Below are positions 4,614 through 19,718 of a stretch of 64,000 nt of DNA, in pieces. Position 1 is the first letter of the stretch. Every line of letters begins with the position of its first letter. Source of the DNA: a virus (Duplodnaviria; Caudoviricetes); the IMG/VR virus record IMGVR_UViG_3300009031_000221, positions 472,054 to 536,053 of that record. One strand, written 5' to 3'. The notes under the pieces were generated by a model. The model made no database searches, was not told the DNA's origin, and saw nothing but the letters and a program-made list of their open reading frames with translations. A program made the translations under genes and the position numbers.

Positions 4614-4642
4614 ATCTACGCTGGCAGGAGCGAAAGTAAGCC
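4614..4642 (-). promoter_or_regulatory. conserved phage promoter motif copy
   Basis: GGCTTACTTTC-N10-GCGTAGAT. Confidence 0.8.
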
Positions 4643-5314: not shown

Positions 5315-5722
5315 TTAGGGTTCCCAACCCTCGAGGGTGCAACCGCCATCCATCGGGTTCGATTCCGGGTTGATGACCCGATCCCCGACGATGAAACGGC
5401 CGCGGGAAATCGGCTCCGCATCCAAGATGGTCGTGCGGTACTTGCCGTTCTTGGCGTACTGCGAAGACAAACGCTTGTTCGCATGGAACTCACGCTCCGC
5501 ACCGTAGGCCAAATCAAGCGTCGAGTACGGGCCAACGATGTGGTTCTCGTCCTGGCAACACGTGCATCCCGTACGGCATTCCACGAAGAAGAGTTCCTGC
5601 GTGACAGGCGCCTCTTCATATTCTCGCCCAGTGCAGGGCGGGGCATCGTCAGTAGTCCCGCCTGCCATGTCCGTACAATAGCCACAACGAGTGCAAGTTC
5701 CAAATGTCCAATCGTGCTGCAT
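5315..5722 (-). CDS. Cys-rich hypothetical protein
   Basis: CTRCGYC, CRTGCTCC; downstream of promoter 5763. Confidence 0.6.
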   Translation of the reverse strand: MQHDWTFGTCTRCGYCTDMAGGTTDDAPPCTGREYEEAPVTQELFFVECRTGCTCCQDENHIVGPYSTLDLAYGAEREFHANKRLSSQYAKNGKYRTTILDAEPISRGRFIVGDRVINPESNPMDGGCTLEGWEP

Positions 5723-10146: not shown

Positions 10147-10926
10147 TTACGCCTGCACGCTGGTGGTGTTCGGCGTCAGCAGGGCGCTGAGGTCAGCGTT
10201 GCTCGCAGCCGGTGCCGCCAAGGCGGGGGTTGCGGGCTGAACGATGTGGGCTTCCACGGGCAAACCCAGCATCTCCGCCAGGGTCGCCTGCTCGAGAGCC
10301 TTCTGCTCTGCCTCGGTCGTCAGGAACGTAGACGAAGCAAGGGCATCCGTCGCGACGCGGGTGATGCCTTCCGCATTCGCCGCACGCTCGTCAAGCGAAG
10401 CCTCGATCTTGCTGAGGCCACTGCCGGAGGTGTCGAACACCTGAACCGAAATCATCTTGGCGAGATCCGCCTGCGACTCCAGCATCTCGGCCTTGGAGAT
10501 CTTGCCCTTCACACGCTCGATGCGCTCGCGGGCTTCCTTGACGAAGACATCACGCTGGCGGGTCTGGAGCTTGTAGGCCTCCTCCGAATGATCCCACTGC
10601 GACTGGTTCTCCGTAATCTCCGACTGCAGACGCTTGACCGTCATGGCGTACTGGCCCGCACGATCCGTCAGGCCGGCAGCATTCGCCGAAAGCATTGCCG
10701 CCTTCGCCTTGGCAAGCTCCGCCGTGGCGGTCGCGATCTGCATCTTCAGGCGGTTGCTCAACCCCTGGGACTTGCCGAGGGACTGGTTGTAGTTCGCCAC
10801 CGCCAAGTTGTACTTGTCAACCTCGTTGGCCAACATCGCCTTGGGATTGGCGTCCTCCGAATTGCTCACGAACAAGCTGAAGAAGCCCCTGAAGAGGTTC
10901 CCGATACGCCGAAACAAATTGAACAT
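10147..10926 (-). CDS. pspA: PspA/IM30 (ESCRT-III-like) family protein
   Basis: MFNLFRRIGNLFRG amphipathic helix 0, E-D-A-N-P-K-A-M-L, long coiled coil; very high GC3. Confidence 0.8.
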   Translation of the reverse strand: MFNLFRRIGNLFRGFFSLFVSNSEDANPKAMLANEVDKYNLAVANYNQSLGKSQGLSNRLKMQIATATAELAKAKAAMLSANAAGLTDRAGQYAMTVKRLQSEITENQSQWDHSEEAYKLQTRQRDVFVKEARERIERVKGKISKAEMLESQADLAKMISVQVFDTSGSGLSKIEASLDERAANAEGITRVATDALASSTFLTTEAEQKALEQATLAEMLGLPVEAHIVQPATPALAAPAASNADLSALLTPNTTSVQA

Positions 10927-10975: not shown

Positions 10976-11004
10976 ATCTACGCACTATGATCTAGAAGTA
11001 AGTC
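10976..11004 (-). promoter_or_regulatory. conserved phage promoter motif copy
   Basis: GACTTACTTCT-N10-GCGTAGAT. Confidence 0.75.
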
Positions 11005-11020: not shown

Positions 11021-11413
11021 TTAGGATTTCGGGGTGGCACCACATGGAATGACATGGACCATCTTGCATTGGATAACCGAAGGCTCCCAAAGCCGATGGT
11101 CAATCCGGCAATCGAAATCGGCACATGTCCCCTTGTTCAGGATGGCACACCGGGTAGACAAACATTCGATCGCCAAGCTGCCGTCCCCGCCACCCACGTT
11201 CGTTACTTCATCCGAAGCCGTGTAGGGGCTCAACAGGATGGCAAACTTCTGCCCGCTTGCCATCGGTACACCGGAATACCGGGAACCCTCCGTGACCACC
11301 ATGCCATTGACGGCACGGACGTACATGGGATCCTTCCATTTGATGAGCCCGTAAACAAGGAGGAGAAGAACAGCAACAACCGCAGCAATGATAAGTTTCG
11401 TTTTCATATTCAT
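11021..11413 (-). CDS. membrane-anchored Cys-rich protein
   Basis: N-terminal TM, several Cys in C-terminal half. Confidence 0.65.
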   Translation of the reverse strand: MNMKTKLIIAAVVAVLLLLVYGLIKWKDPMYVRAVNGMVVTEGSRYSGVPMASGQKFAILLSPYTASDEVTNVGGGDGSLAIECLSTRCAILNKGTCADFDCRIDHRLWEPSVIQCKMVHVIPCGATPKS

Positions 11414-11422
11414 CCTTTAGGG

Positions 11423-11508
11423 CGCCTCTAGTAGGATTCGAACCCACGTTGTATCTTACGACAAGCCGGGTTAAAGTCGGCTCCCATCGTCCACTCGGGC
11501 ATAGAGGC
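11423..11508 (-). tRNA. type II tRNA with UUA anticodon (ochre-suppressor-like)
   Basis: GCCTCTA/TAGAGGC acceptor stem, D arm CCC..GGG, anticodon loop CT-TTA-AC, long variable arm, GTGGG-TTCGAAT-CCTAC T arm, G73; CCA not encoded. Confidence 0.85.
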
Positions 11509-11515
11509 GACGCTT

Positions 11516-11779
11516 CTAATTGATCCCTGACACACTCTCAATGGATTCCTGACGAATCATGGCATTCGCAGGATTCTCATCCTCAAGCACCCGCAGTCTC
11601 GAGTACAACTCGAGGGTGAGTTCCTGAGGCATTTCACAGATGGAATCCAGCTTCGCTGCCATCTTGACGATGGACAACAGGCACAACTTATTTGAAACAC
11701 CGGACATAGATGCGGATGCGATTACCTCGCATAGACGCCCTTCTAGTTCCTGCAACTGCAATGCTTCCGGACTCGCCAT
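11516..11779 (-). CDS. hypothetical protein
   Basis: AGGAG RBS, downstream of promoter 11803. Confidence 0.6.
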   Translation of the reverse strand: MASPEALQLQELEGRLCEVIASASMSGVSNKLCLLSIVKMAAKLDSICEMPQELTLELYSRLRVLEDENPANAMIRQESIESVSGIN

Positions 11780-11802: not shown

Positions 11803-11831
11803 ATCTACGCATACTAGATCGAAAGTAAGTC
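11803..11831 (-). promoter_or_regulatory. conserved phage promoter motif copy (divergent pair, left)
   Basis: GACTTACTTTC-N10-GCGTAGAT. Confidence 0.8.
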
Positions 11832-11843
11832 TCCATCAAGCCG

Positions 11844-11872
11844 GACTTACTTTCAGGCCTAACTGCGTAGAT
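11844..11872 (+). promoter_or_regulatory. conserved phage promoter motif copy (divergent pair, right)
   Basis: GACTTACTTTC-N10-GCGTAGAT. Confidence 0.8.
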
Positions 11873-11911: not shown

Positions 11912-14623
11912 ATGTATCGTTTGATTCTCGCAGCTTTCCTACTGATCATGGCACCCGGGACGACATTCGCCCTGGGCATGACCGTTGGCGGATCCCCGGA
12001 AGATCGATTCTTGGCGGGTCCAGTCCAGGCGCCCAAGCGTGTGGATGGCCAGTTTGTCTATACGGTGCCGGCGGACTTCAATCCCCCGGGCATCCACCAG
12101 AACGGGCTGCAGGAAATCCAGGCGGCGGCAAAGGCACTCCACTTCCCCTTCTACGTCGTGATCGTCGATAGCATTCCCGATCTCACCGATGTTCAAGTAG
12201 CGGAAGCCCGGCACCGGGAATACACGGAAAACGGAATCGAACTGCAGATGGCATACGCGGTTGACAAGATCGTTGAGGAATGGGCAAGCTACGGGAGCTA
12301 CGATGCTAGCCGTACCTCCGCATTCCTGTTGTCCTACCATCCCCGCCAGTACCGCATGTTGGCTGGCGCCAAGTGGAAGCTGGACTTGGGAATCCGAAGG
12401 GACAAGCTTGATCCCTACCTGAACCTATTCAAGCGCTCCGCAATGGGTTCATCCAAAGATCCCAAGGCGGGCATCATCAATCTCATGGGCACCTTCGATG
12501 AGTTCGTGTTCGATCAAACCGACCCAGGTCGAATCAAAGCCCGTGCCGAAGCCGCTGCGAAGGCCTTGGAAGCGGAACGCGCCCAAGCAATCGCCATCGC
12601 ACTGGCTACGGCAAAGGGACGCCTAGGCAACCTCCAGCTCCAGTCCAAGGAACTCCTGAAGGGCGATAAATCCCACCTTCCCGATACCAAGGCACTTGAA
12701 GCGGCGCTTCGCCATGTAGACACTCTATCAGATGCCGATTACCAAAGGGCTGGCCCAGTGAATGCCGAAGCGGATTCCCTGTTGGCGGCATACACCCCTG
12801 TCAAGGTATATTATGATGCCAAGGAACAAAAAGCCCTCGTGGATGCCTTCTGGTACTACTTCTCATGGTTCATGTTCTTGTGTGGCATTTGTTTCCTCAT
12901 CGGAATGTACCTGATGCGTCGTTCCCGCTACTTGAGCCTCATCCAGGAGTTCGCACAGGATTACAAGGATTGGGATGACAAGGTCAAGGCAGCTGCGGGG
13001 CGCTACGTTGACGCCTACTCGAATCGGGACAACATCATCGGATTGCATGACACGGAAGGAAAAACCAAGACCCTGTGGGATGCCCTGTCCTTTGAGATCG
13101 ATGACATCTGGGTCGGCGTCAAGGCCATCGAGAGCCACATTGCAGAGTGCAAGACATTGGCAGCAAAGGCCAACGTGTTCTACATCACCCCACTCCTTGA
13201 CGCCATCAGCAACCTGGATCGTGCCTTCACCTTCGATACCGGTCAGGTCAACGTGGATGAACTGTTCGGGCGGGACACGAAAACCATTCGTGTTGTCCCG
13301 AGTTCCTTCGCCCAGACATTGCAGCAGCGATTCAAGAACAACCAGGAATCCTGGGACCGAATCAAGCGGGCTGCGGATATTCGTATGCCTGACCAGTGTG
13401 CATCCAATTTGTTCCCGCATCTACCCCTGACCAATCTCATGAGGGCGGCGGCAAAGTTGGGCATCCCGGATGCATGGTACAACGACCACCCGCTCGCCGG
13501 GGATGACGCTTCGGATGCCGCGGTGTGGGAAGCGGCGGATAGCCTTCGTGTGAAGGATCCGATTGCCTACCTGGATGCAATTGAGGCACTGAAGGCTCAG
13601 GAACGCAAGGTTATTGCCCGCCACGATCGCTTGGTCAATGCGCTGAGCCTGATCAAGCCAGTGAAGGTGGATAGCCTTCCCGCGTTCGAGTCCGCCTTCG
13701 ACGCATCGGATGACCCCGCCATCACCCTGTCCAATGCCCGTGATACGGAACATCGGCTTGCCGGCCTCCTGGAATCCAAAGCGGAAACCAAGGCTGTGGA
13801 TGCTATTGATGCATACGTCGCGGATATCGTGGCGCTCTACACGAAGGTCAAGGCACAAGTCGGCACCATCACAGCGGCCGTCAAGGATGCCAATGATGCT
13901 GTCAGGGCTGCAGATGCAGCATACCCCAAGAAGTTGGGTGTGGATGCCGCCATCTGCGTCAAATCCGCAGCCCGGATTCACCTCAACATCGAGGTTGCCA
14001 ATACGAACCTCAAGTCGGGGGATGATCTCACCGCTCAAGGTCGCATCGCATTCCTCAGGGCCAACGAAGCCCTGAAGTCGGGACGGCACTTGGAAGCCCT
14101 GCGGAAGGCATCATCTGCATCTACGTTGTACGCCAACGCCCGCAAGGCCTATGAGAAGGCAGTTAGCTACTGCGGTGAATTGGATCGCTCCAGGGCGGCA
14201 TTTGAGGCCAAGGTTGGCAAGATGGCATCCATCCGCGAAGAACACATGCGGCGTGTCAAGCAGTACCATGGGGCGCCCATCCGCCTCAAGTCCTACTCGG
14301 CACCCTCTGTGTCCAACGTGATGGACTATAGCATCGCCCTGAGCGCCCTCAGTGCCCAGGAATCGGCGTGGGAACGTGAATCCCGCCAAGTCCAGTCCGC
14401 CTATGAGGCAGAGCAAGCTCGGCAACGTGCTGAACGGGATGAGCAGGATCGCCGTGAACGTCAAGCCATTGCTGCGGCGGCAGAAGCGGCCGCTTCCGCC
14501 CGCCGTGCCGCATCCTACAGCAGCTACAGCAGCGGTTACACCAGCTACAGCAGTGGGGGATCGGATTCCGGGGGCGGAAGCTGTGGCGGTGGGGGATCGG
14601 ATTCCGGTGGTGGCGGCTGGTAG
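11912..14623 (+). CDS. large membrane protein, TPM-domain-like with coiled coil and Gly/Ser tail
   Basis: AAGGAG RBS, signal peptide MYRLILAAFLL, internal TM (YYFSWFMFLCGICFLIGMYLM), SGGSDSGGGSCGGGGSDSGGGGW tail. Confidence 0.7.
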   Translation: MYRLILAAFLLIMAPGTTFALGMTVGGSPEDRFLAGPVQAPKRVDGQFVYTVPADFNPPGIHQNGLQEIQAAAKALHFPFYVVIVDSIPDLTDVQVAEARHREYTENGIELQMAYAVDKIVEEWASYGSYDASRTSAFLLSYHPRQYRMLAGAKWKLDLGIRRDKLDPYLNLFKRSAMGSSKDPKAGIINLMGTFDEFVFDQTDPGRIKARAEAAAKALEAERAQAIAIALATAKGRLGNLQLQSKELLKGDKSHLPDTKALEAALRHVDTLSDADYQRAGPVNAEADSLLAAYTPVKVYYDAKEQKALVDAFWYYFSWFMFLCGICFLIGMYLMRRSRYLSLIQEFAQDYKDWDDKVKAAAGRYVDAYSNRDNIIGLHDTEGKTKTLWDALSFEIDDIWVGVKAIESHIAECKTLAAKANVFYITPLLDAISNLDRAFTFDTGQVNVDELFGRDTKTIRVVPSSFAQTLQQRFKNNQESWDRIKRAADIRMPDQCASNLFPHLPLTNLMRAAAKLGIPDAWYNDHPLAGDDASDAAVWEAADSLRVKDPIAYLDAIEALKAQERKVIARHDRLVNALSLIKPVKVDSLPAFESAFDASDDPAITLSNARDTEHRLAGLLESKAETKAVDAIDAYVADIVALYTKVKAQVGTITAAVKDANDAVRAADAAYPKKLGVDAAICVKSAARIHLNIEVANTNLKSGDDLTAQGRIAFLRANEALKSGRHLEALRKASSASTLYANARKAYEKAVSYCGELDRSRAAFEAKVGKMASIREEHMRRVKQYHGAPIRLKSYSAPSVSNVMDYSIALSALSAQESAWERESRQVQSAYEAEQARQRAERDEQDRRERQAIAAAAEAAASARRAASYSSYSSGYTSYSSGGSDSGGGSCGGGGSDSGGGGW

Positions 14624-14823: not shown

Positions 14824-15297
14824 TCACGGAATATCGAATCGGACATTCTCACCGTCCCACCACCCAACACGTCCTCGAACTGTGGGCATCCCTGATCGGG
14901 CTTCTGCACTCCGCACTAGGAACTTGGCATAAGCAGGGGGAACCCCTGCCGCAGTGGATATGGTGATATGTGGAATTCGCCCTCGGGGTGCTAAAATGCT
15001 AGGCGGGTCTACTACCACGGCCTGCCCTTTAGCATCCTCCGCATAGCCTACAATCTTCAACGCTATGAACTTCCCTAATGGAAGTTCCTCAAGGCGGGGA
15101 TCCCCACCGTCATGGTGCGTCCATATAGTCATATGATGGGCAAACAGTTCTGAATGAACCTGTCCAAACCGATCGACTAATCGACGTTGATCCATGGGAG
15201 ACAGAAACACTGCCGTATAAAGGGGAGTGCCTATGAATTCGGCAACAACATGCCGTATCCACCGGGATGCCACACGATGTTTAGGGCTTTGTTGCAT
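14824..15297 (-). CDS. 2H phosphoesterase
   Basis: two HxT motifs (HMT, HIT); N-terminal HRVASRW. Confidence 0.75.
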   Translation of the reverse strand: MQQSPKHRVASRWIRHVVAEFIGTPLYTAVFLSPMDQRRLVDRFGQVHSELFAHHMTIWTHHDGGDPRLEELPLGKFIALKIVGYAEDAKGQAVVVDPPSILAPRGRIPHITISTAAGVPPAYAKFLVRSAEARSGMPTVRGRVGWWDGENVRFDIP

Positions 15298-19689: not shown

Positions 19690-19718
19690 ATCTACGCACT
19701 CCAGATAGAAAGTAAGTC
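19690..19718 (-). promoter_or_regulatory. conserved phage promoter motif copy
   Basis: GACTTACTTTC-N10-GCGTAGAT. Confidence 0.8.

Follow-up and report, generated by a model that had tools for sequence, protein, structure and literature searches.

Suppressor transfer RNAs (tRNAs), whose anticodons read stop codons, are well documented in phages that have recoded TAG or TGA, where their acquisition is believed to come before recoding, at a stage when the codon is already scarce as a stop (bioRxiv 10.1101/2021.08.26.457843; PMC13037316). An unexplained tRNA(CUA) also stands among the 44 tRNAs of Ralstonia phage RsoM2USA, a jumbo phage that uses the standard code (PMC8504454). The current explanation of phage suppressor tRNAs is that they are tools of stop reassignment (TAG to Gln, TGA to Trp), which does not fit the gene that we describe here. 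This gene lies in the final 64 kb (positions 472054-536053; hereafter the window) of a viral record that is 536,053 bp long and comes from groundwater metagenomes. It encodes a class II (long-variable-arm) tRNA with the anticodon UUA (11423-11508, minus strand; positions are those of the window unless the genome is named), and it falls outside the reassignment explanation because its anticodon reads UAA, the genome uses the standard code, and TAA and TAG together account for two thirds of the stops. We argue that the gene is real, selected and very probably a functional ochre suppressor, whatever purpose it serves, a reading to which we give a probability of about 0.7.

A class II tRNA gene with a UUA anticodon

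The initial annotation of this DNA had described a cloverleaf with a TTA anticodon, a variable arm of ~17 nucleotides (nt), G73, an A31-C39 mismatch and no encoded CCA, and all of these features are present. ARAGORN agrees, labelling the sole tRNA of the 64-kb window (11420-11509, minus strand) as tRNA-Stop with anticodon tta. Rfam family RF00005, whose gathering score is 29 bits, matches 11423-11508 on the same strand with 45.4 bits (E = 1.8e-6) over the full model (positions 1-71 of 71). Followed along the minus strand from G1 at 11508 to the discriminator G73 at 11423, the RNA has a seven-pair acceptor stem (G1-C72 to A7-U66), a D arm with a four-pair stem (CCCG/UGGG) and a 9-nt loop including G18G19, and an anticodon stem of five positions (GCCGA/CCGGC) with four Watson-Crick pairs and the A31·C39 mismatch. 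The 17-nt variable region forms a four-pair stem in either of two registers, UGUC/GAUA with a GNRA-type loop or UUGU/ACAA, and the T arm is GUGGG-UUCGAAU-CCUAC. Within the 7-nt anticodon loop C32-U33-U34-U35-A36-A37-C38 (CUUUAAC, 11476-11470), the sequence and the Rfam alignment place the anticodon U34-U35-A36 at 11472-11474, which reads TAA on the plus strand. The same alignment shows the conserved tertiary and loop nucleotides U8, G18G19, U33, a purine at 37 and the T loop UUCGAAU. The geometry is that of a standard 7/5 acceptor/T cloverleaf, and we rejected an assignment to tRNA-Sec, which has a UCA anticodon, 8/5 geometry and a six-pair D stem. Also discarded was the C(-1)·G73 pair of the ARAGORN drawing, which is missing from the related locus L035 (see below). 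Together with the compensatory changes described in the next section, these results identify 11423-11508 as a genuine class II tRNA gene with a UUA anticodon.

The discriminator is followed by CCC (11420-11422, minus strand) instead of an encoded CCA, and directly after it come the Shine-Dalgarno sequence and start codon (ATG) of a 130-amino-acid (aa) open reading frame (ORF), the next gene. By a crude count, CCA is encoded in about 25 of the 68 phage tRNAs and absent from about 43, and the phage carries a CCA-type nucleotidyltransferase domain.

Two independent Logan assemblies (L031 and L032), made from further runs of the same study, are identical to the window through the whole region, and a 48-kb contig with a depth of about 20 shows zero differences from it at the tRNA region; the anticodon base, for which the initial annotation had considered an error, has the same letters in all three. 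The remaining genome contains 67 tRNAs and a transfer-messenger RNA (tmRNA) in arrays at 208-260 kb, 224 kb away from the isolated window tRNA. Compared with tRNA-Ser(UGA) of the phage, the body of the latter has 52% identity, and no array tRNA matches it better than 65%; for the five suppressor tRNAs that we compared, the best array match lies at 62-74%. Because of these distances, the window tRNA is not a recently mutated copy, and the earlier remark that tRNA-Ser(UGA) is one substitution away holds for the anticodon but not for the body. We found no close DNA relatives of the phage in the phage collection, and exact-pattern scans of viral contig and genome contig collections with the anticodon arm and with the variable/T arm returned zero matches.

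Two elements outside the window also concern translation. At genome positions 213498-213586 (plus strand), ARAGORN reports a Ser-like class II tRNA with G73, an encoded CCA and an 8-nt anticodon loop printed 'tgaa', which could be either a decoder of four bases (+1 frameshift) or a tRNA-Ser(UGA) that was called wrongly. The tmRNA (genome 225791-226190, minus strand), located within the tRNA array, has the tag peptide ANDNVEFTSFAAAA and may be relevant to read-through that reaches the ends of messenger RNAs (mRNAs).

Stop-reading tRNAs beside the same gene in related phages

The gene for a 903-aa protein that diverges from the tRNA (11912-14623, plus strand) served as synteny anchor of the tRNA slot. 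Homologs of this protein, about 31-50% identical, are found on other large contigs, and we compared the fetched loci around the ~900-aa gene, examining every locus with DNA. In L035 (neighbour protein 48% identical), the same place and orientation are occupied by a 90-nt class II tRNA with UUA, G73 and an encoded CCA, in L033 (48%) by a 76-nt class I tRNA with UUA and A73, and in L036 (46%) and L045 (45%) by class I tRNAs with CUA and G73. L050, a 377-kb contig (39%), has a class I tRNA with CUA, U73 and an encoded CCA about 870 nt downstream of the ~900-aa gene. A stop-reading tRNA is therefore present within 1 kb of the same gene in six of seven readable lineages, the window phage included: class II UUA in two, class I UUA in one and class I CUA in three. 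All five tRNAs of the relatives score above the RF00005 cut-off (39-62 bits), and the neighbour proteins of these carriers are about 39-50% identical to that of the window. Conservation of the TTA anticodon in related phages thus holds for L035 and L033 but not for L036, L045 and L050, which have CUA. Upstream of the ~900-aa gene, L047 and L049 (40%) have Gly and Arg tRNAs only, and L037-L044 (31-34%) have no tRNA.

The two class II tRNAs, of the window and of L035, are 74% identical. Seven of their 25 pairs have changed on both sides with pairing kept (three each in the acceptor and anticodon stems, one in the T stem), one additional pair-keeping single change turns G·U into G-C, and the C-U-U-U-A-A stretch of the anticodon loop is the same in both. 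These compensatory changes around an unchanged stretch point to a working tRNA with selection on its anticodon, and the existence of a diverged ortholog in L035 implies an old, separately maintained gene. They also bear on the possibility that we are looking at a decaying or mutated copy of a tRNA-Ser, tRNA-Leu or tRNA-Tyr, or at a sequencing or assembly error in the middle anticodon base. Such an origin would be in keeping with the A31·C39 mismatch, the lack of an encoded CCA and a score a little under those of the phage's other class II tRNAs (49-58 bits). Nevertheless, independent assemblies are identical, diverged relatives keep the anticodon while their stems change in compensating pairs, the genome contains no close paralog, and the tight packing of the locus, with a Shine-Dalgarno sequence directly after the tRNA, argues against a dead gene. 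We consider this explanation largely refuted and extremely improbable.

The comparison of L033 with L035 shows that the tRNA itself can be swapped. Their neighbour proteins are 90% identical and their flanking non-coding DNA is near-identical, but the tRNA(UUA) is of class I in L033 and of class II in L035, both placed between the same two copies of a putative promoter motif, CTTACTT-N12-GCGTAGAT (see below), the second of which comes directly after the tRNA. These flanking copies offer a plausible route for cassette exchange by recombination. The motif is conserved in L033, L035, L036 and L045, and its distance to the tRNA 5' end is 11-12 nt in L033 and L035, about 31 nt in L045 and about 60 nt in L036.

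UUA pairs with UAA and also, though less strongly, with UAG through wobble at U34, while CUA reads UAG only. The amino acid inserted does not seem to be conserved, since the body is of class I or class II and the discriminator G, A or U. All this suggests that the property conserved in the clade is the reading of UAA/UAG, the codons of release factor 1 (RF1), and not a particular amino acid. Read-through appears to be a selected trait because five relatives keep a stop-reading tRNA beside the same gene despite the swap of the tRNA; maintenance of a stop anticodon through body replacement and UUA/CUA switches implies that read-through would be useful in itself, whatever residue is inserted.

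A tRNA-shaped RNA might also be conserved without decoding anything, either as a decoy for a host anticodon nuclease or another tRNA-targeting defence, or as a processing signal that splits an operon. The window tRNA is squeezed between two ORFs, at 7 nt from the end of the first and 9 nt from the start of the second, so that its excision would cut the mRNA. All versions share U35-A36 with tRNA-Tyr (GUA), a known nuclease target. However, the tRNAs of L033, L035, L036, L045 and L050 are not wedged between ORFs, and the first four have the promoter motif directly upstream, so that mRNA punctuation is not the conserved role. The differing bodies, acceptor stems and discriminators fit poorly with mimicry of one host tRNA, and this variation makes a decoy for one specific nuclease hard to reconcile with the data; moreover, what a tRNA requires to be charged and to decode is preserved in the acceptor stem, T loop, D loop and A37. 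A non-decoding role consequently looks quite unlikely.

Several other observations concern the tRNA(CUA) loci. ARAGORN labels the CUA tRNAs of L036, L045 and L050 as tRNA-Pyl, a type characterized by a short D loop without G18G19, a 3-nt variable loop and an atypical T loop; we rejected this label since the three tRNAs have normal D loops with GG and variable loops of 4-5 nt. Their T loops are of the UUCAAAU-, UUCGACU- or UUCGACC-type. Directly after the tRNA(CUA) of L036, a tRNA-like stretch (5642-5714, minus strand) scores 20.5 bits on RF00005, below the cut-off; it includes a hairpin resembling a T arm but lacks a proper anticodon arm, and is probably what remains of an earlier tRNA cassette. 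Downstream of the CUA tRNAs there is also a conserved non-coding element of ~35-40 nt (CCATGTTGACCCGTCACTAGCTTTA...; L036 5530-5565 and L045 775-812, both on the minus strand), which may be a promoter of another class. The string 'ATG TTG ACC CGT CAC TAG' found 3' of the CUA tRNAs of L036 and L045 is conserved non-coding sequence and not the start of the next gene.

Predicted charging, genetic code and client genes

The initial annotation had pointed to the long variable arm and G73 as Ser-type marks, and both were found, together with C11:G24. G73 occurs in the phage's own Ser tRNAs, whereas its Leu and Tyr tRNAs have A73. The identity set of E. coli tRNA-Ser includes G2:C71 and C11:G24, and all four tRNA-Ser genes of the arrays start with GGA and have G:C at 2:71. 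As the class IIa synthetase core (PF00587) is absent from the phage, a host enzyme must charge the tRNA, and seryl-tRNA synthetase (SerRS) most likely is the best candidate for the window class II tRNA in view of the long arm, G73 and C11:G24. A loop with A36-A37-A38, typical of tRNAs that read codons starting with U, is found in four of the six stop-reading tRNAs. L035 and L033 have A31-U39 and A38, whereas the window tRNA has A31·C39 and C38; because these depart from the optimum for U-starting codons, only weak read-through is expected, and the window tRNA is probably a weak suppressor.

A release-factor-like protein of 199 aa, much shorter than bacterial release factors, is encoded outside the window (genome 394490-395089, minus strand; L046 1396-1995). 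It matches Pfam RF-1 with 103 bits, contains the GGQ motif and has S-P-T where RF1 has PxT and RF2 has SPF, a hybrid-looking codon-reading motif. An interplay with the suppressor tRNA is possible.

Stop usage was counted on crude gene models, built by codon-usage scoring without a trained gene finder. The 610 models of the whole genome end in TGA (219), TAG (209, 34%) or TAA (182, 30%), and the 86 models of the window in TAA (32), TAG (29) or TGA (25), so the initial statement that TAA still ends many genes and is not reassigned stands. ORFs of at least 150 aa under code 11 cover 84% of the genome, whose G+C content is 52%, and reading TAA as sense adds the least ORF coverage of the three stops. 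T is the commonest base after TAA stops (72 of 182), and TAA followed by T is a strong termination context in E. coli. Recoding of the code 15 or code 4 type was rejected: TAA is not depleted as a terminator, no TAA-interrupted genes appear and the gain in coverage is the smallest. The phage genome uses the standard code, without reassignment of TAA. Among the 33 genes called in the L033 and L035 loci, TAG, usually the rarest stop in bacteria, ends 18 and TAA only two (1 of 20 in L033 and 1 of 13 in L035).

The tRNA could nonetheless reflect incipient stop-codon reassignment in this clade, or be left over from a former one. The scarcity of TAA as a stop in those two short loci would suit this idea, and so would the published model, in which the acquisition of a suppressor comes first and in-frame stops follow, and which is accompanied by suppressors in some relatives of recoded phages that use the standard code (bioRxiv 10.1101/2021.08.26.457843). 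The same work, however, requires prior depletion of the codon as a stop, which contrasts with the 30% TAA and 34% TAG observed here, and knows only TAG-to-Gln and TGA-to-Trp changes where phage and host codes differ (bioRxiv 10.1101/2021.08.26.457843). Given in addition the high coverage under code 11, the minimal gain with TAA as sense and a G+C content that is not low, we judge this scenario very unlikely.

We searched the whole genome for genes interrupted by TAA or TAG, requiring each stop to be flanked on either side by 50 or more stop-free codons with coding signal; clients or extensions shorter than about 20-50 codons are below the reach of such screens. Several candidates dissolved on inspection. 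The long in-frame TAA 'extensions' at genome 199490 and 47718 proved to be the genes that follow, which have a Shine-Dalgarno sequence and an ATG of their own, the TAA at genome 421386 is an ordinary junction, and the TAA at window position 15281 lies opposite sense codons of L035 only within a low-complexity Ser/Pro tail. The sole coding-like TAA extension in unannotated space of the genome consists of 53 codons in frame past the TAA (genome 103707) of a conserved 141-aa gene (extension at genome 103548-103706, minus strand; L051 549-707). It belongs to a TnsA_N-type (PF08722) endonuclease, is 82% identical to the end of 255-aa homologs (the last 60 residues of P0164), and was rejected as a client, being the C-terminal remnant of a nuclease gene of this type; it is the scar of a mobile nuclease gene. 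The ~900-aa gene ends in TAG in the five carriers with the tRNA upstream of it and in TAA in L050, and read-through of its TAG was dismissed in view of extensions of 4-29 codons that are not conserved. A tblastn search for clients with stop-to-stop ORFs gave shadow-frame artefacts only. Same-frame gene junctions were not enriched after TAA/TAG relative to TGA (p = 0.48), and genes ending in TAA showed no protection by nearby back-up stops, with a median extension of 21.5 codons against 12-14 for the other stops.

A number of these results weigh against a functional suppressor. No gene with an interrupting TAA or TAG emerged from the genome-wide screen, and TAA, TAG and TGA are all common stops of the phage's genes. 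The 26 in-frame TAA codons with coding signal on both sides are all ordinary gene junctions, 25 of them with a Shine-Dalgarno sequence and a start just after, and orthologs compared between the phage and the fetched relative loci have no in-frame stops. At the slot itself, the L047/L049 lineage (40% identity) has sense tRNAs only, and the more distant L037-L044 have none. Serine identity is incomplete, pair 2:71 being C:G in the window tRNA and A:U in that of L035, and A31·C39 with C38 could mean poor rather than tuned function.

It is possible, although less likely than not, that the tRNA gates a few specific genes through a programmed in-frame UAA/UAG or a short C-terminal extension, acting as a switch as in recoded phages. 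A conserved stop anticodon suits such a dedicated decoding task, short clients could have been missed because the screen needed at least 50 stop-free codons on each side, and published recoded phages concentrate their recoded stops in late and lysis genes (bioRxiv 10.1101/2021.08.26.457843). Against this, the screen yielded no TAA-interrupted gene, the only coding-like unannotated extension is the TnsA_N-type remnant, the extensions of the ~900-aa gene are short and unconserved, orthologs are free of in-frame stops, and the lack of a conserved amino-acid identity of the tRNA would be odd for a fixed coding position.

Promoter context, possible benefit and known systems

The initial annotation had placed a promoter at 11803, where we find, on the strand of the tRNA, a copy of the repeated motif CTTACTT-N12-GCGTAGAT (11803-11829, minus strand). 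The motif has 23 sites in the window against 0.06 expected, always ahead of genes and on either strand (among them 4614-4640, 10976-11002, 11803-11829, 11846-11872 and 19690-19716), which makes it very likely the main promoter of the phage in this region. The copy at 11803-11829 precedes an 87-aa ORF (11516-11779, minus strand), whose TAG stop is 7 nt away from the 5' end of the tRNA, the tRNA itself, and the 130-aa ORF (11021-11413, minus strand), Cys-rich with an N-terminal membrane helix, whose start lies 9 nt past the discriminator and whose Shine-Dalgarno sequence begins directly after the tRNA. With this copy upstream on the same strand, co-transcription of the tRNA from it is plausible. 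The next copy (10976-11002, minus strand) precedes a 259-aa gene (10147-10926, minus strand), and the divergent 903-aa gene has its own (11846-11872).

The neighbours give few functional hints. No homologs or known family were found for the 87-aa ORF, no Pfam or PHROG family for the proteins neighbouring the tRNA, and no relatives in the viral contig collection for the 903-aa and 259-aa proteins, scanned as single proteins and as alignments. The flanks of the stop-reading tRNAs contain no HDV-like or theta ribozyme and no other Rfam family. The 903-aa family is large, with 219 cluster representatives (E <= 0.001) that are each about 900 aa long; their tail is rich in Gly and Ser and its last residue is Trp. 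The gene often neighbours a 225-259-aa gene, whose copy in L050 has a weak PspA_IM30 match.

Reasoning from these sequence features, we propose that the suppressor would be transcribed from the phage promoter at 11829-11803 as part of a short operon and excised by host RNase P and 3' processing enzymes, with CCA supplied by a CCA-adding enzyme, which the phage encodes. Host SerRS, an enzyme that recognizes G73 and the long variable arm irrespective of the anticodon, would most likely then charge it, and the charged tRNA would compete with the release factor at UAA (and UAG) in the infected cell, leading to read-through that is probably weak.

None of the three purposes put forward in the initial annotation, regulated read-through, sabotage of host termination and a nuclease decoy, was borne out by the analysis. 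Service to a few small or undetected client genes is conceivable but tentative. General low-level read-through or nonsense buffering is somewhat doubtful, and about the same can be said of a benefit of some other kind. Action on the translation of the host or of competitors is more doubtful; pure host sabotage is hard to reconcile with the existence of CUA versions while TAG is a common stop in these phages. We can also imagine, as a rather improbable proposal, that a promoter-flanked 'suppressor slot', perhaps together with the release-factor-like gene, sets a termination regime in which UAA/UAG termination is deliberately loosened for a limited time and the code stays unchanged. If true, this would be a mode of translational takeover not described so far. 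Confirmation of the functional suppressor would raise the question of how a virus profits by weakening termination at the codons that most of its own genes use, and it would supply genetic-code work with ochre and amber suppressor tRNAs that are natural and already tested by evolution.

Among known systems, the recoded crAss-like, Lak and 'gemstone' phages resemble the window phage in having a stop-anticodon tRNA, a very large genome, many tRNAs and a release-factor gene (bioRxiv 10.1101/2021.08.26.457843; PMC13037316), and in both cases the hosts are presumed to use the standard code. The recoded phages differ in that their tRNAs read UAG or UGA, with many in-frame stops and a depleted codon, whereas the window tRNA reads UAA in a standard-code genome where no interrupted gene was found. 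RsoM2USA, likewise a jumbo phage, has one tRNA for a stop codon with which it still ends genes, but the codon is UAG and no evidence from conservation or synteny was reported (PMC8504454), in contrast with the six lineages, body swaps and UUA/CUA alternation found here. We found no description in the literature of a UAA-reading tRNA conserved in a clade of standard-code phages, although our coverage was incomplete, so that such a description may exist. In joining a long variable arm and G73 to an anticodon foreign to serine, the window tRNA recalls the allo-tRNAs of Mukai et al. 2017, which reportedly have 8/4 or 9/3 acceptor/T-stem geometry, unlike its own 7/5.

Laboratory suppressors include E. 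coli supC (tRNA-Tyr UUA), supG/supL (tRNA-Lys UUA), supB (tRNA-Gln UUA) and supD (tRNA-Ser CUA), and psu1 of phage T4 derives from tRNA-Ser; ochre suppressors are typically weak and also read UAG. The window tRNA shares with them a UUA anticodon (CUA in relatives) on an otherwise normal elongator body, and its Ser-type body is expected to be charged whatever the anticodon, as with laboratory Ser suppressors. Those suppressors, however, are single-step mutants of resident genes, whereas the window tRNA is natural, diverged, without a close parent in its genome and kept across lineages. Phage suppressor tRNAs as such are known; what is new here is the argument from conservation and body swaps for a UAA-reading tRNA in a standard-code clade.

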